From an uncultured bacterium (GTDB taxonomy: Bacteria > Nitrospirota > Thermodesulfovibrionia > UBA6902), in assembly GCA_965603765.1 (NCBI GenBank), contig CBFDEG010000001.1, positions 1-58,554 of the forward strand: a stretch of 58,554 nucleotides of DNA, given 5' to 3'. The translations under genes were made by a program, and so were the position numbers. Position 1 is the first letter of the stretch; the number at the start of each line of letters is the position of its first letter. The notes beneath the pieces are model-generated. The model was not told the DNA's origin and made no database searches. It saw only the letters and a program-made list of their open reading frames with translations. Shown here in pieces: positions 32,770 through 49,386 of the stretch.

Positions 32770-32795
32770 ATGTATTGCAAAGGGAGGTGACTGAA

Positions 32796-33038
32796 ATGTC
32801 CAAAACCATCACATTAAGAATAAAAGACGAGGTATATGAACTGTTCCGCACACTTGCAGAAAATGATAACCGTACGCTTTCTAATTTTATAGAGACAGCT
32901 GCCCTGCGCCATATTGAAGAAAATGAGTTTGCTGATGAATATGAAATGGCCGAGATAAGGGACAATAGGGAACTGAACAGAAGCCTGAAACAGGCACTCA
33001 AAGATGCAAAGGCAGGACGGGGACAGTTTGTTGAGTGA
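32796..33038 (+). CDS. Ribbon-helix-helix antitoxin (CopG/RelB/ParD-like)
   Basis: MSKTITLRIKDEVYELFRTLAENDNRTLSNFIETAALRHI. AGGGAGGTGA Shine-Dalgarno at 32781-32790. Confidence 0.8.
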   Translation: MSKTITLRIKDEVYELFRTLAENDNRTLSNFIETAALRHIEENEFADEYEMAEIRDNRELNRSLKQALKDAKAGRGQFVE

Positions 33039-33312
33039 TTATAGAATATTTGAAACTGAAGAATTTACGAAAAAACTCGTCAAGATTGATGCACGGGATT
33101 CACAATTCATAAAAGAGAAACTCCGTAAATACGTATATCCCCAGATTCGAAAAGAACCGCGTTTCGGTAAAAATATAAAAAAGCTCAGAGGGTATGAGCC
33201 TGATACCTGGCGTTACCGAATCGGGAAGTTCAGGGTGTTCTATACAATAGAGAATGATAAGGCGGTTATTCTTATGCTGACGCTGGATCACAGGAAAGAT
33301 GCTTATGGATAG
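33031..33312 (+). CDS. Type II toxin, RelE/ParE superfamily
   Basis: YRIFETEEFTKKL...WRYRIGKFRVFYTIENDKAVILMLTLDHRKDAY. A TTG start (33028 or 33031) overlaps the antitoxin stop. Confidence 0.82.
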   Translation: MSDYRIFETEEFTKKLVKIDARDSQFIKEKLRKYVYPQIRKEPRFGKNIKKLRGYEPDTWRYRIGKFRVFYTIENDKAVILMLTLDHRKDAYG

Positions 33313-33349
33313 GCAAGGAAAAAGTAGAATTTGGTGTTTTATTAACGAC

Positions 33350-33643
33350 TTATGATCTTTTTTTCCAGTAACCGGGCCTGCGGCGTAGATGTGCCACTGC
33401 GGTGACAATAATTTGTTCCGGTTCGATATAGTATAGAATAGCAAACGGAAACCTGCGGACAAGACGTCTTCTTAACTTTCCTTCAATTACAGGCCATGTT
33501 TTTGGAGATAGTGCGACTGAGTTTACAGCTCCTTCTACTTCTGAGAGATAGTCATAACCCAAACCGGTAGCCTGAGTTTCATAATACTTGGCGGCTTCAT
33601 ACATTTCCTCTTCTGCAGCAGGAAAAAATTTAACATGCTTCAT
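33350..33643 (-). CDS. Type II toxin, ParE/RelE superfamily
   Basis: MKHVKFFPAAEEEMYEAAKYYE...RRFPFAILYYIEPEQIIVTAVAHLRRRPGYW. 4-nt ATGA overlap with the upstream antitoxin. Confidence 0.8.
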   Translation of the reverse strand: MKHVKFFPAAEEEMYEAAKYYETQATGLGYDYLSEVEGAVNSVALSPKTWPVIEGKLRRRLVRRFPFAILYYIEPEQIIVTAVAHLRRRPGYWKKRS

Positions 33644-33870
33644 TTAAGCCTGGAACGGGTATCTTTAAATACCTGCTCTGACGGCTTTGTTTTTACCTTT
33701 CCATCTTTGTACTCCTGATACCGGGCTTCTGCTTCCGCAACCCATAATCTTTCTGCATCAGGGTCTTCCTCATTATCAAGGCTTTTCAGTAAATTTTCTG
33801 CTAGTTGTGCCCTTTCAGTAGAGGACAGCTGCATGGCTTCTTTCTTTATTTCTTCAATTTTAAGCGGCAT
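33640..33870 (-). CDS. Addiction-module antitoxin (putative addiction module component family)
   Basis: EAMQLSSTERAQLAENLLKSLD...DAERLWVAEAEARYQEYKDG. GGAGG Shine-Dalgarno at 33876-33880 (minus strand). Confidence 0.8.
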   Translation of the reverse strand: MPLKIEEIKKEAMQLSSTERAQLAENLLKSLDNEEDPDAERLWVAEAEARYQEYKDGKVKTKPSEQVFKDTRSRLK

Positions 33871-34200: not shown

Positions 34201-34749
34201 TTAACACTTTCCTTTATGCTTTCCCTCAACAATCACTTTGTAGCATGATAAATTGCGAATAGCATCTGTTTTTATGCAGTTGTTAACATTGAATCCGTCA
34301 TCTATAGCTTTTCTTAGCCATTGGCACGCTTCATCATTTTTGCCTTTAATAGCATAAAGCTCAGCCATACTCGTAATTGCATATTGATTCTTTTCATTTA
34401 TATCTAGCGCCTTTTTTATATCCTCTCCAGCATTATCAAGTTGACCAATTAATAAATATGTATATCCACGGTTGTTATAAGCCATATCATACATAGGATT
34501 TATCTCTATAGCCTTACTGAAATCATCTAACGCTTTGTGATATTCTTCTTTTTGAGAATAAGCACATCCACGGTAGAAGTATGCGACGTCGTATTCCGGA
34601 TTCAATTCAATGGCCTTGTCGTAATGATCTATAGCCTCATCATATGAACTCTCATTTAAAAAAGAGCCTCCTCTTAAGTAGTAGAATTCATACTCTGGTG
34701 CACAAGCAATAACGGTTAACAAAATAATTAAGCAAATAACTTTTTTCAT
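34201..34749 (-). CDS. TPR-repeat lipoprotein
   Basis: Lipobox LTVIAC. Repeated A..YY.RG.AY....Y..A..D..KAIE..P units. Confidence 0.8.
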   Translation of the reverse strand: MKKVICLIILLTVIACAPEYEFYYLRGGSFLNESSYDEAIDHYDKAIELNPEYDVAYFYRGCAYSQKEEYHKALDDFSKAIEINPMYDMAYNNRGYTYLLIGQLDNAGEDIKKALDINEKNQYAITSMAELYAIKGKNDEACQWLRKAIDDGFNVNNCIKTDAIRNLSCYKVIVEGKHKGKC

Positions 34750-35092: not shown

Positions 35093-35120
35093 AAAAAAGG
35101 GCGGGTTTGAAACCCGCCCC
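35093..35120 (-). terminator. Rho-independent terminator closing the NuoEFG-like operon
   Basis: On the minus strand GGGGCGGGTTTCAAACCCGCCC is followed by TTTTTT, about 45 nt after the stop at 35166. Confidence 0.85.
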
Positions 35121-35165
35121 TACGTTACTTTCACGCTTACTAACTTACCCGCTGTCCCGCTAACC

Positions 35166-37619
35166 TCACATCTTCTCTAATTTAACAGCAACTATCGGTG
35201 ATTCGCCTTCTGATGATATGCTTGTGAGCGTATTTATCTTTGCGAACGGGAAGTGGGTCGGCACGAACACTGTTCCGTCAGGCAGTTCTGATGCGACCTT
35301 TGCCTTCAAAAATACCGAGCCCTGTTTAGAGGTTATCTTTACATGACTGTCATCCTCTATGCCGTTATTTTTAGCGTCCTCTTCACTTATCTCAAGCAAT
35401 GCTTCCGAGACAACCAGGTCGAGGGACTTGGAGCTTGTGGACATGCTTCCAGAGTGCTGGACAACATCCCTTATTACGAGTTTGAACGGATATGCGCTGT
35501 CAGCCTCATCACCGGTTCTGTATTCAACCGGGTTGAATGCCTTTGTGCCTGAGGATTCCTCTGCGGGCAGGGCCTTTATTTCTTCCTGAACAGCCGCAAG
35601 GTTTCTTACGCCTGTGTCCTCTCCCATTGCGAGCGCGAGGTTTCTGAGTATCATCCAGTCAGCAACCGATTGTCCGGTCGGGTCAGAGAGTTTATGCACC
35701 TTCTGAGTTCTGCCTTCAGCGCTTGTGAATGTACCGCTCTTTTCACCCCAGCTTGAGGCGGGCAGTACAACGTTTGCAAGCTTTGCTGTATCTGTCATAA
35801 AGATGTCCTGGACAACGAGGAAATCAAGTGATTTAAGCTTCTCGATGACCTTTTTGCTGTCAGGGTATGTTGTTGCAGGGTCTTCACCCATTACATAGAG
35901 CATGCTTAACGGCATGTTCTCATTGTAGAGCATCTCCAATACACCCTTGTCCTCAGGTTCGTTAAGCGGCCTTATGCCCATTTTATAATGTCCAAAAGTG
36001 TTTGAGAATTCAGCCGGTATCTGGAGCGCCTCAGGCCCGTCACCCAGAAGGTTGACAAGGTTTGCCGCGGCAAGGACCGTGTCCATGCCTTTTGTGTTCT
36101 CAGAGACACTGACCGAAAGCGATATCATTCTGCTCTTTGCATTGCCAAGCGCTTCTGCGGCGTACACAATGTCAGCTTCAGGAATGCCTGTGATGGCGGA
36201 CACTTTGTCGGCAGTGTAGTTTTCGAGCGAGCTTTCAAGTGCCGCAAGATCTTTGATCTTTGATGCGGCATCTTTGTCATAAAGACCTTTGTCGATTATT
36301 ATCTTCATGAGGCCGTTTATAAGTGCTACGCTTGTGCCGTCATTTATGCTGAGCCATTTTGAGCTGTGCCTTGTCAGTTTTGACTCTCTTGAATCAGCCA
36401 CCAGAAGTTCGCTCCCCTCTCTTTTTGCCTGGAGCATGTTAAGCCCGAAAACAGGATGGGTAACGCTGGGGTCTGACTCGAGGACGAGAATGACGTCCTT
36501 GCCTATCGGGGATTGGAGGTCTATCTTATGGTTTTTCTGACCGAAAGATCTTTCCCACGCCTTTTGTACCTTTGTATATCCGAACTCAGCGGACGATCCA
36601 ATATTGTTGGTGCCGATTATCTTCCGCATGAATTTCTGGAGAAGATAGTTGTCTTCATTTGTACACCTCGGGGAGCCTATTGCGCCGACTGTATCCGGTT
36701 TGGCTGTTTTGAGGACGGCTTTTATATTATTCGAGATATAGTCGAGTGCATCGTCCCATGATACTTCATTGAACTCATCACCTTCTTTTATCAAAGGATT
36801 CTTGAGGCGTTTGGCGCTGTATATGTAGTCAATGCCGAACCTGCCTCTTCCGCAGAGGTTTCCGTCACTGACACCGACACCTTCTTTACCGCTTGCCCTG
36901 AGGATCTTTCCTTCCCTCATTCCAAGAGTAAGGGTACAGCCTACACCGCAGAACGGACAGGTTGTGTCCTGGTCTTCTATGAACCATGAGCGTGCGGTGA
37001 ATTTGTAAGGCTTGCTGAGAATAGCGCCCGTAGGACATACGTCAAGACATTGTCCGCAGTAATCACATTCGAGTATTTCGCCGAATGCAGGCTGAACAAC
37101 TGTATCGAATCCTCTGCCTATAAGGCCGAGCGCCGCTTTCCCCTGGTGTTCTGCACAGATCCGGACACATTTACCGCAGAGAATGCAGCGTCTTGAAGTG
37201 AGCTCTATCAGCGGGCCACGAACATCTGATGCAGCCTCTTTTCGATGCCTTAGAAATCTTCCTTCGGGTTTGCCGTATTCATAGGCCAGATCCTGGAGGT
37301 CGCATTCGCCTGCCTTGTCGCACTCCGGGCAATCGAGCGGGTGATGGATCAGCATAAGCTCGATTACTGTCTGGCGAAGCTTTCGTAGTTTTGGAGTTTC
37401 TGTGATGACTTCCATTCCTTCCTGTGCAGGCGCTGAACATGCCGCGAAAAGCCTTGGCTGGTCCTTGACCTCAACCAGGCAGAGCCTGCATCCTCCGTAT
37501 GGCCTCAGCCTCTTGTCAGCACACAGGTTCGGTATATATATTTTATTTCTTAACGCAACAGAGAGGATCGTATCTCCGGTTTCCGCAGTGACTTCTTTTC
37601 CGTTGATTATCAGCTTCAT
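35166..37619 (-). CDS. NuoG/Nqo3-like Fe-S subunit with a molybdopterin-oxidoreductase-fold domain (no obvious active-site Cys/Sec)
   Basis: N-terminal 2Fe-2S (C..GGCRLC). His/Cys cluster HHPLDCPECDKAGEC. CILCGKCVRIC and CDYCGQCLDVCP. MopB 4Fe-4S CPFCGVGC. The segment IGTNNIGSSAEFGYTKV sits where formate dehydrogenases carry C/U-H. Confidence 0.85.
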   Translation of the reverse strand: MKLIINGKEVTAETGDTILSVALRNKIYIPNLCADKRLRPYGGCRLCLVEVKDQPRLFAACSAPAQEGMEVITETPKLRKLRQTVIELMLIHHPLDCPECDKAGECDLQDLAYEYGKPEGRFLRHRKEAASDVRGPLIELTSRRCILCGKCVRICAEHQGKAALGLIGRGFDTVVQPAFGEILECDYCGQCLDVCPTGAILSKPYKFTARSWFIEDQDTTCPFCGVGCTLTLGMREGKILRASGKEGVGVSDGNLCGRGRFGIDYIYSAKRLKNPLIKEGDEFNEVSWDDALDYISNNIKAVLKTAKPDTVGAIGSPRCTNEDNYLLQKFMRKIIGTNNIGSSAEFGYTKVQKAWERSFGQKNHKIDLQSPIGKDVILVLESDPSVTHPVFGLNMLQAKREGSELLVADSRESKLTRHSSKWLSINDGTSVALINGLMKIIIDKGLYDKDAASKIKDLAALESSLENYTADKVSAITGIPEADIVYAAEALGNAKSRMISLSVSVSENTKGMDTVLAAANLVNLLGDGPEALQIPAEFSNTFGHYKMGIRPLNEPEDKGVLEMLYNENMPLSMLYVMGEDPATTYPDSKKVIEKLKSLDFLVVQDIFMTDTAKLANVVLPASSWGEKSGTFTSAEGRTQKVHKLSDPTGQSVADWMILRNLALAMGEDTGVRNLAAVQEEIKALPAEESSGTKAFNPVEYRTGDEADSAYPFKLVIRDVVQHSGSMSTSSKSLDLVVSEALLEISEEDAKNNGIEDDSHVKITSKQGSVFLKAKVASELPDGTVFVPTHFPFAKINTLTSISSEGESPIVAVKLEKM

Positions 37620-39466
37620 TATTTCGTCACCTCCTGATCCTGTTCAGCAGGTTCCGGCTCTTTAAGGGAAGCATTTATTTCTATTGCACCGAACGGGCAG
37701 GCATCATAACATGTCCTGCATTGTACGCATAGCTCCTGTATTACCCTGTGGGGCTGTTTCTTTTCTCCCACAATGGCTTTTGAAGGACAACCCCTTAAAC
37801 AGAGGCCGCATCCCTTGCATTTTTCCGCGTTTATATCGAATGAGCATAGTGTGCTGCATATTCCGGCCTTGCACCAGCGCTCGTTGATGTGGGATTCATA
37901 TTCATGCCTGAAGTATTTGATTGTTGTAAGTACCGGGTTCGGAGCTGTCTGTCCCAGACCGCAGAGAGATGTTGCTATAATGTCTTTGCTGAGATCAAGA
38001 AGGGTCTCTATGTCTCCCTCTTTTCCCCGGCCGGCACAGATATCGGTCAGCATATCGAGCATGACCTTTGTACCGACCCTGCAGGGTGTACATTTTCCGC
38101 AGGACTCTTCAGCTGTGAACTCAAGAAAGAATTTCGCGGTGCTTACCATGCATGTATCTTCGTCCATGACAACCATACCGCCGGACCCTACAATTGCGCC
38201 GGTCTTGTTAATGTCTTCATACGTAACCGGGATGTCTAACAGCTCTTCAGGGATACAGCCTCCTGACGGGCCTCCGAGCTGGACTGCCTTGAATTTCTTC
38301 TTTTTCTTGTTTATGCCGCCTCCGATGTCATAAATAATCGATCTCAGCGGTATGCCCATCGGCACTTCAACAAGGCCGACGTTTTTAATGTCTCCTGTAA
38401 GCGCGAATACTTTTGTGCCCGCGCTCTTTTCTGTGCCTAATGTCCTGTACCATTCGGCCCCGCCTAAGATAATAGGGGCTATCTGTGCCAGTGATTCGAC
38501 ATTATTCAGAACGGACGGTTTGTCCCAAAGTCCTTTGTGGGCAGGGAAGGGAGGTCTCGGTCTCGGCATGCCGCGCTGTCCCTCAATGGAACGCATAAGA
38601 GCGGTCTCTTCACCGCAGACGAATGCCCCGGCTCCGAGATATATCTCAAGATCAAAATCAAAACCGCTGTCAAGGATGTTCTCTCCCAGAAGTCCGGCGT
38701 CACGGCATTTTTCTATTGCCATCTGGAGACGTTCAACAGCAAGCGGATATTCCGCTCTGACATAAATGACGCCTTTGCTCGAGCCGATCGCCTTTGCACC
38801 GATAATCATTCCCTCGATTACGGAATGGGGGTCAGCTTCCATGACCGACCTGTCCATGAATGCACCGGGATCACCTTCGTCACCATTGCAGAGCATGTAT
38901 TTCTGGTCCGCGACCGATTTAGAGGCGAATTCCCATTTAAGACCTGTCGGGAAACCCGCTCCGCCTCGTCCTCTCAGGCCTGAGTCTTTCATTACCTGGA
39001 TAATATCTTCAGACGTCATTTCAGTCAGCGCCTTTGCTGTGGCTGAATATCCGTCTCTTGCGATGTATTCTTCGAGGCTTTCAGGGTCTATCATGCCTTT
39101 GTTCCTTAATACCCTGAGCACCTGGTGTTTAAAAAATGGTATGTCATTCATTAAAGGAATGGCACTTTTATTCTCGGCGTCCTTAAACATTAATTTCTCA
39201 TACGGACGGCCCTTTAGAAAATGCTCTTCAACGAGCTTTGGTATTTCTTCAACAGTGAGTTTCTGATAGAAGATCTCTTCGGGGTATACAAGCATGACAG
39301 GACCCTCGGCGCAAAAACCGTTGCAACCTGTAAGTACGATCTTGATCTCATCCGCGAGCCCCTGTTTTTCGAGCTCAGCCTGCAAGGCGTCTTTTACCTT
39401 GGGGGTCCCGGTTGCAACACATCCGGTACCGGCGCACATCAATAAATTGGCACGATATTTTTCCAT
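37619..39466 (-). CDS. NuoF/HydB-like NAD(P)H-FMN subunit with an extra N-terminal [2Fe-2S] and C-terminal 2x[4Fe-4S]
   Basis: CAGTGC...GCNGFC. GRGGAGFPTG. GAGAFVCGEETAL. SCGKCTPCR. CKGCGLCLRGCP and CVQCRTCYDACP. Its stop overlaps the next start (TAATG). Confidence 0.9.
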   Translation of the reverse strand: MEKYRANLLMCAGTGCVATGTPKVKDALQAELEKQGLADEIKIVLTGCNGFCAEGPVMLVYPEEIFYQKLTVEEIPKLVEEHFLKGRPYEKLMFKDAENKSAIPLMNDIPFFKHQVLRVLRNKGMIDPESLEEYIARDGYSATAKALTEMTSEDIIQVMKDSGLRGRGGAGFPTGLKWEFASKSVADQKYMLCNGDEGDPGAFMDRSVMEADPHSVIEGMIIGAKAIGSSKGVIYVRAEYPLAVERLQMAIEKCRDAGLLGENILDSGFDFDLEIYLGAGAFVCGEETALMRSIEGQRGMPRPRPPFPAHKGLWDKPSVLNNVESLAQIAPIILGGAEWYRTLGTEKSAGTKVFALTGDIKNVGLVEVPMGIPLRSIIYDIGGGINKKKKKFKAVQLGGPSGGCIPEELLDIPVTYEDINKTGAIVGSGGMVVMDEDTCMVSTAKFFLEFTAEESCGKCTPCRVGTKVMLDMLTDICAGRGKEGDIETLLDLSKDIIATSLCGLGQTAPNPVLTTIKYFRHEYESHINERWCKAGICSTLCSFDINAEKCKGCGLCLRGCPSKAIVGEKKQPHRVIQELCVQCRTCYDACPFGAIEINASLKEPEPAEQDQEVTK

Positions 39467-39512
39467 ATGTATCTCCTAATAAATAGGGTTTGAAAATTCA
39501 AAAAATTAATAA

Positions 39513-39896
39513 TTAATATGTTGTTTCACTGCCGATAACAAGCGCGTATTTTTCAACGGGCTTGCCGCCCATAACATGCTCTTTGAATATCTCGCGTATC
39601 TTGTCGGCTGTAAGTTCGCCGTATTTTACAGGGGGCTGGTTCACTATTTCGACTGTCACCATCGGCTCCCGGGCACAAAAACCCGCGCATCCTGATGTTG
39701 TTGTTATCACGTCTTCGACCTTTGACAGTTCTATCTCTTCCATAAGCGCGGTCATGATGTTTCTTGCGCCTGCGGCGATACCGCATGTGCCCATATGGAC
39801 AGTGACCTTTGCCCTGTTGCCGCCTTCTCTGAGAGCAAATGTGGCGTGCTGTTTTTCTTTTATTTTTTTAAGATCAGCGATCGTTATTCTTGTCAT
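39513..39896 (-). CDS. Small thioredoxin-like [2Fe-2S] ferredoxin-domain protein (HydD-like)
   Basis: VHMGTCGIAAG ... SGCAGFCAREP. Only three Cys in 127 aa. Confidence 0.75.
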   Translation of the reverse strand: MTRITIADLKKIKEKQHATFALREGGNRAKVTVHMGTCGIAAGARNIMTALMEEIELSKVEDVITTTSGCAGFCAREPMVTVEIVNQPPVKYGELTADKIREIFKEHVMGGKPVEKYALVIGSETTY

Positions 39897-39981
39897 TTTG
39901 ATTCCTCCTTGTTAAAAGAAGGGACAAAGTGGCAAAGTGAAAAACTTTGTTCCTCTGTTCCTTTGAACCTTTGTGTCTGAT

Positions 39982-40854
39982 TTATCTATATTCATTCAGT
40001 ATTTCTGTTATCTTTTTCGGTGTGACCGCGCCGTATGTCTCCTCATCTACAACCACAACGGGCGCGAGCCCGCAAGCTCCGAGACAGCGTACTACTTCAA
40101 TAGAGAATTTTTTGTCTTCAGTCACATCTCCGACATCTATCTTGAGTTCTTCCTTTATCTTGTTGAGGGATTCTTCGACCCTCTTAACATAACAGGCGGT
40201 ACCCAGGCAGACCCTTATATTATGGTCGCCTCTCGGTTTCATGGTGAAAAAGGAATAAAATGAGACTATGCTGTGTATCTCGGCAGGCGAGAGGTTAAGC
40301 CCTTTGGCAACGCGCTTCTGCACTATTGGAGGCAGGTATCCGACTATTTGCTGACACCGCTGTAATACAGGGATCGAACTGCCGGGTTTGTCCTTGTACT
40401 TTTTTATGACCCTGTCCATCTCCTCGATCATTGAGGGAGGGAACTCGTCTTCCTTGGGTTTTGTTTCAACTGAAGCTTGTTTGTTCAGCCATTCGACAGC
40501 CCTCAGGGTGACATCTGTAAGCACCGCAGGGGTGAAAGGCTTCGGCACATAATCAATTATGCCGAGTTCAAGTGCTTCTTTTATTGTTTCCTGTGAAGGA
40601 TAGCCGGTCAGTATGACTATTCCGATATCAGGTCTTTTCTGTCTCAGCCATCTGATGAGCGTTATGCCGTCCATCTCGGGCATATTAAGGTCGGTGAGCA
40701 CAAGGTTGTAGCTGTTCTGCTCCATCTTAAGGATGGCCTCTTTTCCGCTTGAGGCGCTTTCTATCTCATATCCTTCAGACTTGAGGACCATTTCAACACT
40801 GCGGATAATGACTTTTTCATCATCTACAACAAGGATCTTGATATTATCAGGCAT
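39982..40854 (-). CDS. Fusion of a response-regulator receiver domain with a NuoE/HydC-type [2Fe-2S] subunit
   Basis: REC motifs: ILVVDDEK, LTDLNMPEMDG, VILTGY, VPKPF. NuoE motifs: CLGTACYVKR and CLGACGLAPVVVVD. Confidence 0.85.
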   Translation of the reverse strand: MPDNIKILVVDDEKVIIRSVEMVLKSEGYEIESASSGKEAILKMEQNSYNLVLTDLNMPEMDGITLIRWLRQKRPDIGIVILTGYPSQETIKEALELGIIDYVPKPFTPAVLTDVTLRAVEWLNKQASVETKPKEDEFPPSMIEEMDRVIKKYKDKPGSSIPVLQRCQQIVGYLPPIVQKRVAKGLNLSPAEIHSIVSFYSFFTMKPRGDHNIRVCLGTACYVKRVEESLNKIKEELKIDVGDVTEDKKFSIEVVRCLGACGLAPVVVVDEETYGAVTPKKITEILNEYR

Positions 40855-40963
40855 CAGGAGATTCCTCCTATATTATGGGGTGACGGGTAACAGTCTATAA
40901 ATGAATTTAATGACAGATACAGTCTCATTTTGACGAACCTTATTTAGTGAGAATAATTAAATG

Positions 40964-41737
40964 TTAAACGGTTTCCAGAGGAAACACTCTTGCAAGCCAT
41001 AGCAGCCAGCCTTCAGACAGGTGGTCTTTCAGCAGCGCGGCCATAACATCATTGGCCCTGGTGTTGATCTCTCTCAGGTCTGCGGTCATCGGTGAAAGCA
41101 GGTCATTGCTCTGACCTGTGCTTGAATAAATACTTGCAAAGGGTTTTCCTGCTTCGAATTTATCAAGGCCTTTAATAAAGTCCACATATGTGAGGGCGCC
41201 GGAAAGTATCCAGTACCTGAGATCACAACCTACTTCCCAAAGGCCGTCCTTTGCCGGGCGCGCCCATGTTCCTTCTTTATAGAAAATGATGGGGTTGTCC
41301 TGCTCCCGCAATGAGACAACTGAATCCCGGAATTCATCGATAAATGCCTGCCTCAGTATCCATCCCCTTTTGTCAAAGACCTTTTTGGCGACATTGAGCA
41401 TGAAGTCAGGGGTGAAGGGTTTTTCGAGATACTGCCGTGCTCCGAGCCTTGAAGCCTCTTTAGCATCTTCAAGCCGGGGGTATCCTGTAATTATTACAAC
41501 ATCGGTCTGTGGCTTGGCGATACGCGCTTCTTTCAGAACTTCCATGCCGCTTATGTCAGGCAGCATCACGTCAGATATGAAAAGGTCGAAGTCCTCTTTT
41601 ACCAGCTTGTTGAGGGCCGCTTCTCCTTTGTCGACAGTTGAAATGCTGTAACCTTCTGCTCCGAGTATTCTCTTGCAGCTTAATGTTACAACAGGGTCAT
41701 CATCAAGTATTAAAATCCTGCCTTTTTTCTCCATCAA
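40964..41737 (-). CDS. Receiver domain fused to a glycine-cleavage-H-like domain without the lipoyl lysine
   Basis: REC motifs: ILILDDDP, FISDVMLPDISG, VIITGY, LEKPF. C-terminal half: GLWEVGCD...LTYVDF...GKPFASIYSSTGQSNDLLSPMTADLREIN...SEGWLLWL. Confidence 0.7.
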   Translation of the reverse strand: MMEKKGRILILDDDPVVTLSCKRILGAEGYSISTVDKGEAALNKLVKEDFDLFISDVMLPDISGMEVLKEARIAKPQTDVVIITGYPRLEDAKEASRLGARQYLEKPFTPDFMLNVAKKVFDKRGWILRQAFIDEFRDSVVSLREQDNPIIFYKEGTWARPAKDGLWEVGCDLRYWILSGALTYVDFIKGLDKFEAGKPFASIYSSTGQSNDLLSPMTADLREINTRANDVMAALLKDHLSEGWLLWLARVFPLETV

Positions 41738-41837
41738 ACCCCCTTCCGGTTAATTTATTATACTTATTAAACCGGCATTTACATCCCGGAAAATTAACCT
41801 TAAAATAACCGGAACACTTAAATTGCAGAAATCAAGT

Positions 41838-42398
41838 TTATTCTATCATATTATCTGTACTATTTAACCATGCACTTATATCGTTCTTAATAATTTTTAT
41901 CACGTCCGGTTCGTTAATCGGGATGCCGTCGAGGTCTTTTTTGAGCTCTGCGGTATCGAGTGAATATTTTTTGTCATTTCTAATGTGCTCAAACAGGAAA
42001 TCTATCTCCGGATTGGACATGATGAGAATTATCATTGTCTGGGTAATGTCTCCGAGAGGTTTCCGGTCAATATGGTCATGCTGGAAGGATGCTTTTATGG
42101 ACGTGCCCTTGCCTTTTTCTGAATTTACAGTGATATTCCCGTTACATTCTCTTGCTGATTGAGCAAGCAGAGGGATGCCGAGTCCGACTTTGCGCGTGGT
42201 CCTTGTGGTGTAAAAAGGATTGCAGGCATTTTCGAGCAGTTCCTTATCCATGCCTTTGCCGTTGTCGCTTATCTCCAGTGTCAGCAGGTTTGCCGCAGTA
42301 TCCTCGACGATCGTTATATCTACCCTGTCCGCCTCAGCGGTTATGCAGTTCTCGGCAATGTCGAGTATATGTAATGACAGGTCTTCCATTACTCCCAC
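41838..42398 (-). CDS. Stand-alone GHKL/HATPase_c-type ATP-binding protein (no His-phosphotransfer domain)
   Basis: N-box HILDIAENCI, G1 ISDNGKGM, G2 GLGIPLL. 186 aa. Overlaps the PHP gene by 10 nt. Confidence 0.75.
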   Translation of the reverse strand: MGVMEDLSLHILDIAENCITAEADRVDITIVEDTAANLLTLEISDNGKGMDKELLENACNPFYTTRTTRKVGLGIPLLAQSARECNGNITVNSEKGKGTSIKASFQHDHIDRKPLGDITQTMIILIMSNPEIDFLFEHIRNDKKYSLDTAELKKDLDGIPINEPDVIKIIKNDISAWLNSTDNMIE

Positions 42399-43132
42399 AC
42401 CACTTTTCGTCCGTCAATATTCTTAAATGCCAATGAAATTTCCTTTATTGTCGGCTCGTTCATTATGAAACTTGTTGTTCTTTTTCCTATATCCTCAGGA
42501 TGGTGCGCGTCAGATGATGATATCCATGGGAATGAGCTGTACATATTGAATTTCTCTTCTGCGCCTTTTCTGTCTGTGTGAGGGGAGAATTCCAGGGCAT
42601 TAAATTTCATGTCATCAGATATAAAACCGAGCTGGGAGATTATGCTGAAGGCGTCCTTGTCAATATGAGAGGCCATGGCAAGCCCTCCCAAAGAATGAAT
42701 ATTATCAATAACTTCCTGCGCAGAGAGCATTGTCGCACCGATCAATAAACGTTTATTGAAATCCATGACCTCATCATTTTCATTTACAACGATCTGCTCC
42801 CCGAACATCTTTTCGTCATTTTCACCCGGCAGTAAATTATTATAGATAATATCCTGTAATTTGATGACAGCTTCCGTGTCATCAAAAAGCGCAAGGATGT
42901 GAGCTTCCTCAGCGGAACATATCTCCATTCCCGCAAGCACGGTCAGCTTTTTATCTGAAGCGGCCTTTTGTGCTGCGATTATGTTTTCTGCTGAATTATG
43001 GTCAGTTACCGCTATTATGTCAAGGTGTCGTTCGGATGCGGCATTTACAACAGCAAGGGGGGACATTTCGAGTTCAGCGCACGGGGAGAGACAGGTGTGG
43101 ATGTGCAGGTCAGCCCTGAATTCTTTCAGCAT
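42389..43132 (-). CDS. PHP-domain phosphoesterase
   Basis: ADLHIHTCLSPCA, VTDHNS, ASHID, SSSDAHH metal-binding motifs. Confidence 0.8.
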   Translation of the reverse strand: MLKEFRADLHIHTCLSPCAELEMSPLAVVNAASERHLDIIAVTDHNSAENIIAAQKAASDKKLTVLAGMEICSAEEAHILALFDDTEAVIKLQDIIYNNLLPGENDEKMFGEQIVVNENDEVMDFNKRLLIGATMLSAQEVIDNIHSLGGLAMASHIDKDAFSIISQLGFISDDMKFNALEFSPHTDRKGAEEKFNMYSSFPWISSSDAHHPEDIGKRTTSFIMNEPTIKEISLAFKNIDGRKVVWE

Positions 43133-43178: not shown

Positions 43179-43206
43179 TAAAAAAAGGCACCCACAAGAG
43201 GTGCCC
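43179..43206 (-). terminator. Rho-independent terminator after the Zn-ribbon gene
   Basis: On the minus strand GGGGCACC-TCTTGTG-GGTGCC is followed by TTTTTTT. It carries the GTAGGGG cap of the REP family. Confidence 0.6.
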
Positions 43207-43249
43207 CTACGATATTCATAATTCGTAATTATTAATTATTAATTGCCGT

Positions 43250-43537
43250 TTACCCCGGCAGTTTATAGTCCGCGCCTGCAAACTGTATGTTTGCCTGATT
43301 GTCACTGCGCGGTGGTGACACTGCGTGTACTCCTCCGCATGAAGGGCATTTGTCCACAAATGTTTTCAGGGTAAAGCTCTCTCCGCATCCCTGACATTTT
43401 GTGTCGAGTCCGTTATTTGGTACGGGCGTGTCCTTTATTGCTCCGCCGTGTGCCTGATAGACAAAATCTACGAGTTCTTTACCTTCGGCATAAGGGCCTC
43501 CGCCGCCACTGCCGCAACCGCATCCACATCCTCCCAT
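43250..43537 (-). CDS. Small zinc-ribbon protein with an N-terminal (Cys-Gly)n tract
   Basis: MGGCGCGCGSGGGG.... CQGCG...CPSCGG (CxxC-x18-CxxC). Strong AAGGAGG Shine-Dalgarno 7 nt upstream of ATG 43537. Confidence 0.65.
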   Translation of the reverse strand: MGGCGCGCGSGGGGPYAEGKELVDFVYQAHGGAIKDTPVPNNGLDTKCQGCGESFTLKTFVDKCPSCGGVHAVSPPRSDNQANIQFAGADYKLPG

Positions 43538-43852: not shown

Positions 43853-44578
43853 TTATCTCTCCATCCTGACCCTTAGTATAATGAGCGTTACAATTCCTGC
43901 CATAAAGAGGATCCCTCCGGTCAATGCCCATACAGCACCCGGCTCCCTGTTTATCTGCAGGAGTATTGTTTTGCGTGGAAATGCAGAGATGTCCCGGACA
44001 TTGATATTGAAACCCATCTGCACTGAAGGGCTGTTCGGACTGATGGTGTCATGCATTAATGTTCTTTCATTAATAAAGTAGGATATTTTGACCTTCCAGT
44101 CAGTCACATATCCGTATTGGTCAATATCAATATCTATGTTATTAATTTTCAGGGAGGTCTCCTCATTGACGGGAATACTGAATCCCTCCATCAAGGTGAC
44201 CGTACTTTGTGACGCGCCCATACTGCTTAGAAAGTGTGCAAGAAGGATGAAGAGGAAACCGATATGGATTATCTGCGGTGAGATTAACAGAAGCCAGCTC
44301 GTGACCTTTCTCTTTTTTATTATCGACTCGATACTGCAGAAAAGGGTATTGCATGCAAGCAGTCCAAGGAGAAATATCAGACCCCACAGCCACCATGTCA
44401 GCTCCAGAGGCTGTTTGGTCAGCCAGCTGAACAGGGGGATGGAATGCAGATCCTGAAACTCCTGCCTCCCCGGCATTATGAACGCACCGCTTAATAGCAA
44501 AAGCAGAATAATACCTAAAAGCCATAAAGATGTTTTGAGCGACAGAAAAAAATCCAGTATGTTCTTCAGTAGTTTCAT
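43853..44578 (-). CDS. ccsB: Short ResB/CcsB-like cytochrome c biogenesis protein (system II)
   Basis: LSLKTSLWLLGIILLLLL, WWLWGLIFLLGLLACNTLFC, HIGFLFILLAH, and C-terminal REPGAVWALTGGILFMAG. Sits directly after ccsA. Confidence 0.75.
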   Translation of the reverse strand: MKLLKNILDFFLSLKTSLWLLGIILLLLLSGAFIMPGRQEFQDLHSIPLFSWLTKQPLELTWWLWGLIFLLGLLACNTLFCSIESIIKKRKVTSWLLLISPQIIHIGFLFILLAHFLSSMGASQSTVTLMEGFSIPVNEETSLKINNIDIDIDQYGYVTDWKVKISYFINERTLMHDTISPNSPSVQMGFNINVRDISAFPRKTILLQINREPGAVWALTGGILFMAGIVTLIILRVRMER

Positions 44579-44610
44579 GATTAGTAATTCTTAATTAGTA
44601 ATTGTCGTAA

Positions 44611-45321
44611 TCAAAAGCTGTGTGAGCTTTTCATCAATAAACTCACTCCGAGATATGTGAACATTACAACCGCAAATCCGGCGATCCCGAGATATGCCAT
44701 CGGCCTGCCTGACCACCATGATATTAGTCTGGCATGCAGATAAAAGCCGTAGAAGACCCAGAGGATGGTTGTCCAAAGTTCCTTTGGTGTCCATACCCAG
44801 TAGGTACCCCATGCAAGGTATGCCCATATACCCCCGAATATCATCGAAAGGGTGAAGAGGCAGTAACCGATCAAAACAGCTTTGTAAGCCAGGCTGTCCG
44901 GTTCAGCGCTTTTTTCCTTCAGATAAAGGCTGCCGAGTATCGCTGCTATACCGAATAGCGCGTACGACATGAATGCAAGCACTACATGGCTTTCGAACCA
45001 GATGGTCTTCAGTATCGGCGGAAGCGGGGAATTGTGCTGTTTTGCTGTCATTGCAAATGCGGTAAATAAGGAAACTGTCACCGCCGTGACATTGAAAAAC
45101 CACTTTTTTTCTTTTAGCGCATTGCCGAACGGTATGGAAAATGCAGCTATTGAAGCTGTCATAAATATAACAGTATCATGCGGTCCCACAAGCGGAAGCC
45201 TTCCGAGTTCCGCTCCCCTTGAAAATATATAAAATATCTGGAGAATAAGACCGGCGTATAACAGTTGTCTTTTCCATAGGGAGAAAAGATAAAAGGCGAA
45301 AGATAGCGCAAGTATGGTCAT
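44611..45321 (-). CDS. ccsA: Cytochrome c biogenesis heme-handling protein CcsA
   Basis: Trp-rich WAYLAWGTYWVWTPKELWT (WGxxWxWD-type). Conserved His residues. 8 hydrophobic segments. Confidence 0.85.
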   Translation of the reverse strand: MTILALSFAFYLFSLWKRQLLYAGLILQIFYIFSRGAELGRLPLVGPHDTVIFMTASIAAFSIPFGNALKEKKWFFNVTAVTVSLFTAFAMTAKQHNSPLPPILKTIWFESHVVLAFMSYALFGIAAILGSLYLKEKSAEPDSLAYKAVLIGYCLFTLSMIFGGIWAYLAWGTYWVWTPKELWTTILWVFYGFYLHARLISWWSGRPMAYLGIAGFAVVMFTYLGVSLLMKSSHSF

Positions 45322-45336
45322 CAGGAGGTTAGTATA

Positions 45337-46683
45337 TTATTTGTGAAGAATAAAATAAAAGTTGTTGCCGTGTTCTGTTGCTTCATAACCGACTATTCCG
45401 CCATGTATCTCAACTGCATTTTTTATAAATGCCAGACCCTGGCCTGTGCCCGGCTGGGTTTCAACATTTGATCCCCGGAACTTTTCTTTAAAAATATCTT
45501 CACGTTCATTCTCGGGAATATGGGGCCCGGTGCTGAATACATTGAATTTGACCCCGTCCTTGTCATGCCCGAAAAAGTCTTTTATGACCTCATGCCCGTA
45601 GGATATATATTTTTTCTTCTCCCCGTTTGCAAGAGAGACTTCCCGTGTGTATTTCAGTGTATTGGAGAAAAGGTTTGCATATACCTGCGCTATAAGGCCT
45701 ACATCAACGACGGTTAAGACCTCAGCATCAGGGATGCCGCTTAAACGGTCGTCTGTTGATATGCCGGCATTACTGAGCCTCTCGATATATCTGTCAAGCT
45801 GGGGCAGGACAACATCGTTTTTCATGTTGCATGTCTTTGTCCGGAGTGTCAGCCGTCCCTGGTCAAAATGGCTTTTCCTGAAGAGTGTTTCGATAAAGAG
45901 GCTCATGTTCTTATAATGTTTTTCTATGTTCTCAAGCTCTGTGTTCAGTCCCAGGTTTATGTCGGCAAGCTCTTTTATGAACTCCTGCATGCAGACCGCA
46001 TCACATGAACCTGCAGAGGCCTTACTGATGAAATCCTTTTCAAGTTCGGTGTTTTTTTCAATTCTTCTTTTGAGGCCCCTTAAAAAGAGCTTATACACCA
46101 TGTTGGGGACTATTATGTTGTGTTCTATGTCAGCGACAAGCGAGCGGATGAATCTGAGGTGCTCGATGTTCTTTCTTACGAGAAACCTGTTATGAATATT
46201 GAAGCCGATACGGTTTGCATATTTCTGGAAAAAGAACTCAGCGTGCTGCCCGAGGTTATCAGCAGGGTATATCTCCAGCAGTCCCAGAACATTGTCATGT
46301 ACTTCAAAGGGCAGTTCTTCAATAAGAGGACCTTTGCCCCGGATAGTCAATGCAATGCTGTTACGTTTCGTATAAAAAGGTTTGTAAGAGGGTTTCAGAT
46401 CCTGCGGTGGCGGCGTGCTCAGCTTGAGATCCTGTTCCTCTGTTCTTGATACGAGAGACATATTGTTTGTTGCCGGGTCTACACTATAAAGGCGGGCATC
46501 CCGGTCAAAATAGATCTTTGGTATAACCACACAGAGATTGTAAAAGTCCTGTATGCTGTCGACCTCCTGCGCAAGGTCAAAAAAGGTCTTCAGCGCGTCA
46601 TTTTCATTGCGGGCGAAATCATATTTTTCGTAATCAGCTTTTTTACGATTTGCTCTTTCATATATATAATTCATGCTGCTCAT
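45337..46683 (-). CDS. Soluble sensor histidine kinase (GAF-like N-domain + HisKA-like + HATPase_c)
   Basis: H-box-like LVADIEHNIIVP. N-box ANLFSNTLKYT. G-boxes GTGQGLAFIKNAVEIHGG. No hydrophobic segments. Confidence 0.75.
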   Translation of the reverse strand: MSSMNYIYERANRKKADYEKYDFARNENDALKTFFDLAQEVDSIQDFYNLCVVIPKIYFDRDARLYSVDPATNNMSLVSRTEEQDLKLSTPPPQDLKPSYKPFYTKRNSIALTIRGKGPLIEELPFEVHDNVLGLLEIYPADNLGQHAEFFFQKYANRIGFNIHNRFLVRKNIEHLRFIRSLVADIEHNIIVPNMVYKLFLRGLKRRIEKNTELEKDFISKASAGSCDAVCMQEFIKELADINLGLNTELENIEKHYKNMSLFIETLFRKSHFDQGRLTLRTKTCNMKNDVVLPQLDRYIERLSNAGISTDDRLSGIPDAEVLTVVDVGLIAQVYANLFSNTLKYTREVSLANGEKKKYISYGHEVIKDFFGHDKDGVKFNVFSTGPHIPENEREDIFKEKFRGSNVETQPGTGQGLAFIKNAVEIHGGIVGYEATEHGNNFYFILHK

Positions 46684-47118: not shown

Positions 47119-48498
47119 TTAAGTTGAGCCGGCAATAGAGAATTTTTCAGAAATATACCTGTGTATGCTTTTTGCCGCCCGTTTTCCTGCGCCCATTGCG
47201 CTTATTACTGTTGCTGCTCCGGTTGATATATCGCCTCCTGCAAAGATGCCGGGAATATTTGTGCTGTTGTCAGGTGCTGTTTTTATATATCCGCCTCCCC
47301 ATAGCCTCAGACCTTTTATAGATTCTACTAACAGGGGATTTGAGGCCTGTCCGATAGCAACTATTACCTGGTCAACATCAATGATGAATTCGTCCCCTGA
47401 ACGCTCCGGCCTTCTCCTGCCGGATCCATCCGGTTTTCCGAGGATCATTTTGTCGCATTTCATTGCCTTTACATATCCTCTTTCATCTCCGATTATTTCT
47501 GTGGGGTTTGAAAGGAAACTGAATTCGATGCCTTCTTCCTTTGCGTGGTGCAGTTCTTCAAGCCTTGTCGGCATCTCTGCCTCAGTTCGTCTGTATACAA
47601 TATAGACCTTCTCTGCTCCCAGCCTGAGTGCGGTCCTTGCCGCGTCCATGGCGACATTGCCGCCTCCTATTACCGCTGACCTGCGGGCTTTTTTTACGGG
47701 AGTAGCGTAGTCAGGGAACTGTTCGGCCTTCATAAGGTTTACCCTTGTGAGAAATTCCGAGGCAAAATAAACATTGTTCAGATTTTCACCGGGGATGTCC
47801 ATATACCTTGGTGTCCCGGCTCCTACTCCTATGAATACTGCTTTAAAGCCGTCTTCGAAGAGTTCATCGATTGTCTGGGTCCTGCCGACAACCCAGTTGA
47901 GCTGTATTTTCACACCAAGGCTTTTGATATAATCTATCTCTCTGTTGATTATTTTCTTGGGGAGCCTGAACTCAGGTATCCCGTAACCCAGGACACCGCC
48001 AGCCTCATGAAGGGCTTCAAAGACCGTTACATCATATCCGAGCCTTGCAAGCTCCGCGGCGGTGGTGAGTCCTGCCGGACCTGAACCTATGACAGCCACT
48101 TTGTGGCCGTTTAGTTTTTTAGAGGGTATTTTTTTTGAACTGTTTTGTTGTGCATTATGATCGGCCGCGAAACGTTCGAGAGCCCCTATGGAAATGGCCT
48201 GCTTTTTTTTGCCGAGAAGACAGCCGCCCTGGCATTGCCTTTCCTGAGGGCATACTCTGCCGCATATGGCAGGCAGCATGTTGTATTGCCTCACAACATC
48301 AAGTGCTGCTTCAAAGTCACTGTTTTTTATGGCGGATATAAAACCGGGTATGTCTATCTCAACAGGGCACCCCTTTACACAGCCAGGGTTTTTGCATTGA
48401 AGGCATCTTGAGGCCTCCTTTATTGCCTGTTTTTCAGTCAGGCCGAGGGAAACTTCTTTAAAGTCTTTTGCTCTTTTTTTCGGGTCTCTTGTTCTCAT
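47119..48498 (-). CDS. GltD-family NADPH-dependent FAD/FeS oxidoreductase (NfnB/SudA-like)
   Basis: CLQCKNPGCVKGCP, CGRVCP. Two Rossmann motifs, VAVIGSGPAG and SAVIGGGNVAMD. GIFAGGD. Confidence 0.88.
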   Translation of the reverse strand: MRTRDPKKRAKDFKEVSLGLTEKQAIKEASRCLQCKNPGCVKGCPVEIDIPGFISAIKNSDFEAALDVVRQYNMLPAICGRVCPQERQCQGGCLLGKKKQAISIGALERFAADHNAQQNSSKKIPSKKLNGHKVAVIGSGPAGLTTAAELARLGYDVTVFEALHEAGGVLGYGIPEFRLPKKIINREIDYIKSLGVKIQLNWVVGRTQTIDELFEDGFKAVFIGVGAGTPRYMDIPGENLNNVYFASEFLTRVNLMKAEQFPDYATPVKKARRSAVIGGGNVAMDAARTALRLGAEKVYIVYRRTEAEMPTRLEELHHAKEEGIEFSFLSNPTEIIGDERGYVKAMKCDKMILGKPDGSGRRRPERSGDEFIIDVDQVIVAIGQASNPLLVESIKGLRLWGGGYIKTAPDNSTNIPGIFAGGDISTGAATVISAMGAGKRAAKSIHRYISEKFSIAGST

Positions 48499-48535
48499 CT
48501 TATTTAATAATGCAGGGGCACGGCGCGCCTTGACC

Positions 48536-49381: not shown

Positions 49382-49386
49382 AATGT

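Follow-up and report, generated by a model that had tools for sequence, protein, structure and literature searches.

A Nitrospirota operon combining a Bfu-type flavoprotein core, two receiver domains and a large subunit without formate dehydrogenase catalytic residues

In the 58,554-nucleotide stretch of DNA analysed here (the window; contig CBFDEG010000001.1 of an uncultured Nitrospirota bacterium), seven minus-strand genes at 35166–43132 encode a flavin and iron–sulfur (FeS) enzyme core together with regulatory-type proteins. An earlier note, made from the letters alone, had described this segment as an operon of the HydABC/Bfu kind, with co-directional genes separated by small gaps or overlaps in the order PHP phosphoesterase, HATPase-only protein, receiver (REC) plus GcvH-like protein, REC plus NuoE, small 2Fe-2S ferredoxin, NuoF-like protein and NuoG-like protein. 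All seven open reading frames (ORFs) were found there in one orientation (817, 615, 127, 290, 257, 186 and 247 amino acids (aa), counted from the NuoG-like gene outward), and Pfam and NCBIfam annotation of all seven products gave the same list of domains. The features are collected in Table 1. As the comparisons below indicate, the operon is a lineage-specific (Nitrospirota) variant of the known Bfu enzyme family.

Table 1. Genes and boundary elements of the operon, with window coordinates and the basis of each assignment
Feature	Coordinates	Strand	Basis
Intrinsic terminator closing the operon	35097–35121	−	Hairpin and T-run
BfuA-like large subunit, 817 aa	35166–37619	−	Pfam domains, cluster ligands, AF2 fold
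BfuB, HydB/HndC-type NuoF, 615 aa; FMN/NAD(H) site, clusters B1–B5	37619–39466	−	Pfam and alignment to 7t2r_B
Small thioredoxin-like 2Fe-2S protein (HndB/HydD/BfuD-like), 127 aa	39513–39896	−	PF01257 below cut-off; fdxn_Clost
REC-BfuC fusion, 290 aa: receiver and NuoE/HydC-type [2Fe-2S]	39982–40854	−	Response_reg and 2Fe-2S_thioredx
REC and GcvH-like protein, 256 aa, without lipoyl-lysine	40964–41734	−	Response_reg; profile match to GcvH
Stand-alone GHKL (HATPase_c) protein, 183 aa, without HisKA/DHp	41838–42389	−	HATPase_c, 58.7 bits
PHP-family phosphoesterase, 247 aa, translationally coupled to the GHKL gene (TAATG)	42389–43132	−	PHP and PHP_C
Terminator of the preceding 95-aa gene, upstream boundary	43184–43208	−	10-bp stem and T-run

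Outward from the 817-aa gene, the spacing runs from a 1-nt overlap with the 615-aa gene through gaps of 46, 85, 109 and 100 nt to the overlap of the PHP and GHKL genes. The strong terminator noticed in the first reading lies directly after the last gene and consists of an 11-bp stem with 7 GC pairs, a 3-nt loop and a T-run. The second terminator leaves about 50 nt before the PHP start. Because these two intrinsic terminators flank the seven genes, they constitute one bounded transcription unit, and the segment is a real seven-gene operon. Two gene starts were corrected to their most likely positions: an ATG at 41734 for the REC-GcvH-like gene, whose 256-aa product is identical to database protein P0121, and an ATG at 42389 for the GHKL gene, which overlaps the PHP stop codon and whose 183-aa product begins where its homologues do (MEDLSLHILD). 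A search of the approximately 50-nt operon leader for the sigma-54 promoter consensus gave no site, and an Rfam scan of the window gave zero RNA-element matches.

The flavoprotein core was compared with solved enzymes. The 615-aa protein contains an N-terminal thioredoxin-like 2Fe-2S domain, the Nuo51 flavin mononucleotide (FMN) domain, NADH_4Fe-4S and a C-terminal 2×[4Fe-4S] domain (PF01512, 158 bits; PF10589, 114.6 bits), and thus has both of the extra FeS regions that the first reading had ascribed to this NuoF-like protein. Its best solved match is NiFe-HydB of A. mobile (7t2r_B, 826 bits over the full length), followed by HydB 7q4v_B (798 bits), NfnB 9n5u_B (717 bits) and T. maritima HydB (7p5h_B, 686 bits); complex I NuoF gives about 370–380 bits. 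The ligands were assigned as C11/16/48/52 for B5 [2Fe-2S] (CX4C...CX3C, in the PF01257-like N-terminus), C456/459/462/502 for B1, the NuoF-type [4Fe-4S], and C439, C477, H526, C532 and C537 for B2, all five present and aligned to C438, C476, H525, C531 and C536 of the A. mobile protein, with the C-terminal pair B3 and B4 in Fer4 matches at residues 545–596. Members of the family share 70–88% identity in BfuB, and catalytic Bfu enzymes from other phyla are about 65% identical to it. The Bfu family is defined by an invariant BfuBC core with five BfuB clusters; the His/Cys-ligated B2 [2Fe-2S], like B5 and the pair B3 and B4, is absent from non-bifurcating homologues, and the His of B2 occurs in virtually all bifurcating BfuB proteins, while the C476 position may be occupied by T (PMC9304861).

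The 290-aa protein matches Response_reg (106.7 bits) and, over the whole profile, 2Fe-2S_thioredx (PF01257, 162.4 bits); its NuoE part comprises the C-terminal 145 residues, with the CX4C...CX3C motif for the C1 [2Fe-2S] cluster present. The 127-aa protein scores just under the PF01257 cut-off (24.3 against 24.8 bits) and matches fdxn_Clost with E = 1.5e-10. Its C38, C70 and C74 are kept in 66 homologues, and the fourth ligand is uncertain, with His34 at the candidate position in the lineage of the window and Ala in Bacteroidales. The gene occupies the slot of the small thioredoxin-like subunit between hydC and hydB of tetrameric enzymes. Since BfuB matches solved bifurcating subunits along its full length with all B1–B5 ligands, and BfuC matches the NuoE domain, we place the 817-, 615- and 290-aa proteins in the Bfu family. 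On these alignments the flavoprotein core is a genuine Bfu core, and the HydABC/Bfu architecture suggested earlier is borne out by the end-to-end match to bifurcating HydB and NfnB.

The large subunit retains its clusters and has lost the catalytic residues of formate dehydrogenase. In Pfam it consists of Fer2_4, NADH-G_4Fe-4S_3, Fer4_Nqo3, Molybdop_Fe4S4, Molybdopterin and Molydop_binding. The 20 residues that ligate its five clusters, one [2Fe-2S] and four [4Fe-4S], do not vary among 60 homologues: C33/44/47/61 for the [2Fe-2S], H93/C97/100/106 for the His-ligated [4Fe-4S], C145/148/151/155 and C185/188/191/195 for the 2×[4Fe-4S] part, and C221/224/228/256 for the N7/FS0-type [4Fe-4S]. The positions of the Sec/Cys-His-Arg triad of formate dehydrogenases (FDHs; Sec, selenocysteine) are occupied by Gly347, Tyr348 and Ala536, the active-site sequence ARVCHS of R. 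capsulatus FdsA being aligned to AEFGYT. Gly347 is invariant among the 60 family members, and Gly is also found at this position in canonical NuoG. The 27 family members taken from genomes have A-x-(F/L)-G-(Y/F) at the former active site and an Ala in place of the catalytic Arg (IPAE(Y/F)SNT for RGQNNVQG). The same motif search returned CARL-TGA-H or CARLCH, with RGQNNVQG, for the FDH-type BfuA of Syntrophales and relatives, and ARTG(F/Y) for the canonical NuoG encoded beside several family members. The Pfam scan found no H-cluster domain (PF02906) in the 817-aa protein, and the alignment places neither Cys nor Sec at its Mo/W-ligand position, as the earlier note had supposed. No GltD, F420 or rubrerythrin domain was found with the core as a site for a third substrate. 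Since Schut et al. accept members whose third substrate is not yet assigned, the absence of such a site does not exclude membership of the Bfu family (PMC9304861).

The large subunit scores 444.5 bits with Fdh-alpha TIGR01591 (cut-off 666.25) and 440 bits with NuoG TIGR01973 (cut-off 470), under the threshold in both cases. With about 34% identity and 470–540 bits to Nitrospirota NuoG as well as to FDH-type BfuA, it stands equally far from both, and by this measure the family is an old separate branch and not a recent copy of either; an origin as a recent NuoG duplicate was ruled out on the same grounds. The AlphaFold model has a mean predicted local distance difference test (pLDDT) score of 73.6, with 85–95 over most of residues 270–817, and contains a complete four-domain MopB part. 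Three Sec/Cys FDH-type BfuA proteins have 295 invariant MopB columns in common; 100 of these are preserved in the family and 132 in canonical Nitrospirota NuoG. The GxNP, ERR and RGQNN motifs are lost; TNEDNY, VVQDIF...LPAS and QHSG, which we take to be pterin-contacting in FDHs, are retained. NuoG in solved complex I structures carries no pterin. We conclude that a cofactor-less state, as in NuoG and in StnC's inactive FdhF-like domain, is most likely for the large subunit. The latter is a solved precedent for a catalytically inactive FdhF-like domain in BfuA (PMC10482914), and a BfuA that holds only FeS clusters and uses separate catalytic subunits is known from Type 2/3 Bfu enzymes (PMC9304861).

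Both receiver domains that had been pointed out in the enzyme operon have a complete acidic pocket, phospho-acceptor Asp and conserved Thr and Lys. In REC-BfuC these residues, as read from its sequence, are D11, D12, D55, T83 and K105; in the REC-GcvH-like protein (Response_reg, 89 bits) they are D12–14, D56, T84 and K106, all invariant. The REC-BfuC architecture is common to more than 120 clusters at 90% identity, and every taxon name attached to them is Nitrospirae/Nitrospirota. No other product of the operon is as conserved as the REC-GcvH-like protein, whose best 120 matches are 77–100% identical as against 61–97% for the large subunit. The C-terminal domain of the REC-GcvH-like protein gives a weak GCV_H match in Pfam and, in a profile search against the PDB, hits E. 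coli GcvH (3a8i_E) with E = 1.2e-6, by which it is judged a true GcvH homologue. The column of the lipoyl-Lys is a near-invariant Gly (Gly208), and a lipoyl-protein as the third substrate was ruled out for this reason. The domain is rare, with 26 matches among 1.84 billion representative proteins, and most of the near-full-length ones share the architecture of about 250 aa. The AlphaFold model of this protein (mean pLDDT 50.7) was set aside. Our literature search found no description of REC-NuoE/BfuC fusions or of the REC-GcvH-like protein.

In related loci a HAMP-HisKA kinase, a single-domain REC and a sigma-54 activator are encoded directly upstream. The nearest kinase-like gene of the window (45337–46683) has no HisKA match and is not orthologous to the HAMP-HisKA-HATPase kinase of those loci.

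The two remaining products form a pair. The GHKL protein consists only of HATPase_c, with conserved N, G1 and G2 boxes and no DHp domain, and its nearest solved relative is the catalytic (ATP-binding) domain of KinB. Directly after the ATP-binding domain, at residues ~105–118, lies the motif H(I/V)D(R/M)xP(L/M)GD, which resembles the HisKA H-box (HE(L)RTPL). Across phyla, 29 of 32 homologues have the His of this motif. This residue may be a phospho-acceptor placed after rather than before the catalytic domain, or the resemblance may be a coincidence; because it is Asn or absent in the other three homologues, we treat the phospho-His reading as a lead only. The PHP protein (PHP, 39 bits; PHP_C) has H10/H12, D44/H45, E70, H166 and D209/H211, read directly from its sequence, at what are presumably the metal-ligand positions. 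Its only solved relatives are the nucleases EndoQ and RNase AM, with weak E-values, and because the nearest solved relatives are nucleases, a protein-phosphatase role for the PHP protein is not supported by homology.

The earlier note had also mentioned PHP and GHKL genes accompanying hydABC operons in some Firmicutes. We found the pair beside FeFe HydABC operons in Clostridia and Bacteroidales, with PF02906 present in the HydA of loci L064 and L061 (an L with a number denotes a compared locus), as well as beside Sec-FDH Bfu operons in Syntrophales. Since the pair flanks these enzymes too, it is, by this gene linkage, a general accessory of Bfu enzymes. In its fuller form the cassette has five genes in the order DRTGG, HATPase_c_2 (SpoIIAB-like), DRTGG, PHP and GHKL and stands beside Bfu cores in L018 (15792–18298), L004, L006, L014, L020, L022, L042 (7400–9937), L061, L064, L067 and L068. 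The catalytic subunits linked to it are dead NuoG-like proteins, Sec-FDH and FeFe HydA, across Nitrospirota, Syntrophales, Bacteroidales and Clostridia. The window retains only the last two of the five genes. Some loci have PHP and GHKL upstream, as the window does; elsewhere the two genes come about 1.2 kb downstream, after DRTGG, HATPase_c_2 and DRTGG. A literature search on the function of the PHP/GHKL/DRTGG cassette with hydrogenases returned nothing relevant.

The names attached to its closest homologues place the host in the Nitrospirota, order Thermodesulfovibrionales. A genome scan gave 35 loci with the REC-NuoE fusion, 33 of which are labelled Nitrospirae/Nitrospirota or one of their sublineages; the other two labels are 'Deferribacteres bacterium' and 'Bacterium BMS3Bbin05'. 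Nearly all of them keep the order REC-GcvH-like, REC-NuoE, small ferredoxin, BfuB and BfuA. The five-gene core is kept in about 35 genomes of Nitrospirota (Thermodesulfovibrionales). Clustering of all ORFs in 13 loci revealed no further conserved neighbour and no candidate catalytic subunit, in agreement with the earlier statement that the third substrate could not be deduced. In the window, an NfnAB-type (or SudAB-type) pair shares the strand of the operon and is found 4 kb upstream of it (47119–49462, minus), with an NfnB/GltD-like gene (459 aa, Fer4_20 and Pyr_redox_2) followed by an NfnA-like gene (308 aa, DHODB_Fe-S_bind and NAD_binding_1). This pair is not syntenic in any related locus and was ruled out as the missing module.

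Two maturation-type genes were seen in single loci or small groups of them. The gene fdhD, which encodes a sulfurtransferase/chaperone for the molybdenum cofactor of FDH, lies co-directionally downstream of the catalytically dead large subunit in three divergent members, directly in L035 (15774–16565) and one gene further in L027 (10595–11347) and L034 (7211–7963), and the annotated flanks of L035 contain no other MopB gene. Its presence is either a relic of an FDH ancestor or a hint of residual pterin binding. The [NiFe]-hydrogenase maturation gene hypF overlaps the large-subunit stop in one close relative (L003:15844–18201), and the true-FDH locus L063 has fdhD and hypF downstream.

A recurrent neighbour of the related operons is the gene set of complex I. 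The genes nuoA and nuoB lie within a few kb in 12 loci, about a third of the related genomes. In eleven of these the two operons diverge, and the interval between them holds genes for a HAMP-HisKA kinase, a single REC and, in most cases, a sigma-54 activator; in the twelfth, L016, both run in one direction, and 72 nt separate the large-subunit stop from the start of nuoA. The annotation was carried on through nuoF or nuoG only in L004 and L016, and the linkage in the ten further loci refers to nuoA/nuoB. Adjacency of Bfu and nuo genes together with kinase, REC and sigma-54 genes suggests a common regulation of two NADH-oxidising systems. Cultured Thermodesulfovibrio was reported to be without nuoEFG (PMC5165239). 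A simple version of the linkage, in which the operon supplies the missing N-module of an 11-subunit Nuo, was ruled out, the adjacent nuo operons having their own NuoE and NuoF in L004 and L016 and NuoG as well in L004.

Comparison with known systems shows which parts of the operon are shared. With the Bfu family (BfuABC; nearest solved core A. mobile NiFe-HydABCSL, 7t2r) it shares the FMN and five clusters of BfuB, the [2Fe-2S] of BfuC and the 2Fe-2S plus 4Fe-4S chain of BfuA; it differs in having no third-substrate module in or beside it, in the N-terminal receiver on BfuC and in the additional REC-GcvH-like protein. Hnd and the tetrameric, NAD(P)-linked HydABCD FeFe hydrogenases have the same order of NuoE-like, small 2Fe-2S, NuoF-like with extra clusters and large subunit. 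The Hnd order is hndA-B-C-D. Homologues of the 290-aa protein bear the JGI name 'HndA'. The N-terminal FeS part of the large subunit is also shared with these hydrogenases, residues 2–204 matching FeFe hydrogenase models, but a MopB domain stands in place of the H-cluster domain.

The StnABC/NfnABC enzymes (8oh5, 9bov, 9n5u) have the same BfuBC core and a NuoG-like BfuA part with an inactive FdhF-like domain (PMC10482914); the 817-aa protein gives 290 bits against 9bov_A and 245 bits against 8oh5_C. In these enzymes, however, the third-substrate site is a GltD-type FAD/NADPH domain, which the 817-aa protein lacks. Complex I NuoG, and with it the predicted Nuo-Bfu, has the same domain order, Gly plus an aromatic residue at the former Sec/Cys-His site and no catalytic Arg; the window gene, in contrast, lies outside any nuo operon, and its partner flavoprotein is of the Bfu and not of the NuoF type. 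FdsA of R. capsulatus FdsABG (6tg9) is the best match of the large subunit in sequence (392–400 bits) and in fold (top Foldseek hits). The Syntrophales Sec/Cys FDH-type Bfu operons L042, L076 and L063 share the PHP-GHKL-NuoE-ferredoxin-BfuB layout, but their BfuB is fused to a GltD domain and their BfuA has CARL(U/C)H, whereas the window protein is without the catalytic Sec/Cys, His and Arg. In L042 (10949–14005), a Syntrophaceae metagenome-assembled genome, the fused GltD/NfnB-type FAD-NADPH domain (Fer4_20 and Pyr_redox_2) replaces the C-terminal 2×[4Fe-4S] of BfuB, and the BfuB gene is followed by that of a selenocysteine FDH with an in-frame stop in CARL*H; the published Nfn-Bfu layout, unlike this one, has the GltD domain in BfuA.

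Since Bfu clades without an assigned function and dead FdhF-like domains in BfuA have both been published (PMC9304861, PMC10482914), the enzyme is not categorically new. The earlier view of an undescribed system thus does not hold for the enzyme core, and it stands for REC-BfuC, the REC-GcvH-like protein and the role of PHP/GHKL, for which no literature description was found. Two features appear to be undescribed: a stand-alone NuoG-type BfuA without a third module, and two receiver domains in the enzyme operon, one of them fused to the subunit whose movement is proposed to gate bifurcation.

We lean, with slightly better than even confidence, to the reading that the operon encodes a phosphorylation-controlled Bfu NAD(H)/ferredoxin module, in which BfuA serves as an FeS wire or scaffold to a partner encoded elsewhere. 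The product would be a soluble four-subunit enzyme of the Hnd/HydABC type encoded together with its own regulators. BfuB would hold FMN, the NAD(H) site and the ferredoxin-facing clusters, BfuC would carry C1, and the HndB-like protein would accompany them, the core exchanging electrons with NAD(H) and ferredoxin as solved Bfu enzymes do. The C1 [2Fe-2S] of BfuC is mobile in solved Bfu enzymes. BfuA would not be a catalyst; it would be a five-cluster FeS chain on an FDH-shaped scaffold in which about two-thirds of the FDH-invariant positions are lost. Since the FeS chain is kept and the Sec/Cys-His-Arg site is lost, it would act as an electron wire or docking scaffold to a partner outside the operon. 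The complex I/menaquinone branch is the leading, though unproven, candidate for this partner because nuo genes repeatedly adjoin the related operons and the dead site resembles that of NuoG. Phosphorylation would switch activity or assembly via the receiver fused to BfuC; the second, even more conserved receiver carries the GcvH-like domain that cannot be lipoylated, and the translationally coupled PHP and GHKL pair would add a nucleotide- or phosphate-dependent layer of control.

It should be noted that several observations weigh against this reading. The Pfam scan shows no HisKA kinase in the operon, and the GHKL protein itself is without HisKA. The large subunit is no closer to NuoG than to FDH-type BfuA, and its predicted MopB part superposes best on real FDHs (FdhH, TM-score 0.78, root-mean-square deviation (rmsd) 3.7 Å). 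The fdhD genes that follow the large-subunit gene in three divergent loci keep a pterin-containing variant alive, at low probability. No nuo genes are present among the annotated ORFs of the 58-kb window. Where nuo operons do adjoin, in L004 (14–7095) and L016 (5645–10424), they encode their own canonical NuoE and NuoF, L004 also NuoG, and a replacement N-module is therefore not required there.

A more specific version of the favoured reading would make the module an alternative N-module of complex I, a Nuo-Bfu acting in trans: REC-BfuC, BfuB and BfuA would dock on the NuoB/CD/I Q-module in place of NuoEFG under some redox conditions, NADH and reduced ferredoxin would drive menaquinone reduction or the reverse reaction would make reduced ferredoxin, and phosphorylation would pick the N-module. 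Nuo-Bfu enzymes were predicted by Schut et al., including a Nitrospirae/Planctomycetes clade (PMC9304861), and the twelve nuo-adjoining loci (one of them co-directional), the Gly plus aromatic residue as in canonical NuoG and the score close to the NuoG equivalog cut-off are all consistent with this version. Nevertheless, we regard it as rather unlikely: besides the canonical subunits encoded in L004 and L016 and the missing specific kinship to NuoG, nuo adjacency is missing in the window, in the closest relatives with enough flank (L002, L003) and in L023–L035.

The complex might also be a redox sensor and not a metabolic enzyme, reading the NADH/NAD+ and ferredoxin poise and signalling to REC, GHKL and PHP in the manner proposed for sensory hydrogenases (HydS). 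This would account for four of the seven genes being of signalling type, with up to ten regulatory genes around the core in relatives, for the missing third-substrate module and for a REC-GcvH-like protein more conserved than the large subunit. We nevertheless consider it improbable, as BfuB is conserved at enzyme-like levels, the full electron chain of over ten clusters is kept without variation, and the operon has no DNA-binding or other output domain; furthermore, the same PHP/GHKL cassette stands beside bona fide hydrogenases and FDHs, which suggests regulation of the enzyme and not an output of it.

Still less probable is a large subunit that remains a Mo/W-pterin enzyme, with a non-canonical site without a protein ligand and some small molecule as the third substrate. 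Arsenite oxidase is an enzyme without a protein ligand to the metal, and the complete MopB fold predicted with high confidence, the surviving MopB motifs and the downstream fdhD of L035, L027 and L034 would fit such an enzyme. Against it, Sec/Cys, His and Arg are replaced in every member, three motifs are gone, the score is under the Fdh-alpha cut-off, fewer FDH-invariant positions are kept than in canonical NuoG of the same phylum, and fdhD is found neither in the window nor in most loci.

The least probable alternative, a NiFe-Bfu hydrogenase with SL subunits encoded elsewhere and BfuA linking to the [NiFe] pair as in A. mobile HydABCSL, is suggested by NiFe-HydB being the best solved BfuB match, by the hypF overlap in L003 and by the several NiFe hydrogenases reported in published Thermodesulfovibrio genomes (PMC5165239), but hypF occurs in one locus only, no conserved hydrogenase SL genes lie near the operon, A. 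mobile HydA aligns only to residues 3–340 of the large subunit, and the MopB domain has no counterpart in NiFe-Bfu enzymes. The sensor, molybdoenzyme and NiFe-Bfu explanations thus have one or two supporting hints each, and the counter-evidence is stronger.

Returning to the phosphorylation-controlled Bfu module, we tentatively put forward a further proposal, itself somewhat doubtful, that two-component phosphorylation acts directly on an electron-bifurcating enzyme. The BfuC receiver would lock or release the mobile C1 [2Fe-2S] domain, the gate of bifurcation in solved Bfu structures, and the REC-GcvH-like protein would pair with that receiver. Within seconds the cell could then turn the NADH/ferredoxin module on or off or redirect it from one partner to another, complex I being an example. 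The PHP/GHKL pair would be a second, widespread post-translational switch shared with HydABC and FDH-Bfu enzymes. Our literature search found no description of post-translational regulation of Bfu/HydABC enzymes. These enzymes are central to anaerobic energy conservation, and their bifurcation mechanism is still debated, so that a receiver fused to the subunit thought to gate bifurcation by moving would offer a testable handle on gating. Identifying the partner of a member without an assigned third substrate would extend the list of NADH/ferredoxin-coupled reactions and could put the prediction of a ferredoxin-assisted complex I to the test. Found from Clostridia to Nitrospirota, in some cases together with DRTGG genes, the PHP/GHKL cassette may matter for every HydABC-type enzyme, including those used in engineering of H2/CO2 conversion.

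Several other minus-strand genes surround the operon. Directly upstream, the gene with its own terminator (43250–43537) encodes a 95-aa protein beginning MGGCGCGCGSGGGG, with a CxxC...CxxC zinc-ribbon and weak HypA-/rubredoxin-like matches. Further upstream, a short ResB-like/CcsA pair (43853–45321; 241 and 236 aa) lies between this region and the kinase-like gene, and a 503-aa protein (52805–54316) has an N-terminus resembling cytochrome bd subunit I and, at its C-terminus, a c-type cytochrome domain. Downstream of the operon, small ORFs at 32775–33870, which adjoin a TPR lipoprotein gene (34201–34749), are of toxin–antitoxin style as judged from their translations and include overlapping ORFs of about 90–100 aa on both strands.

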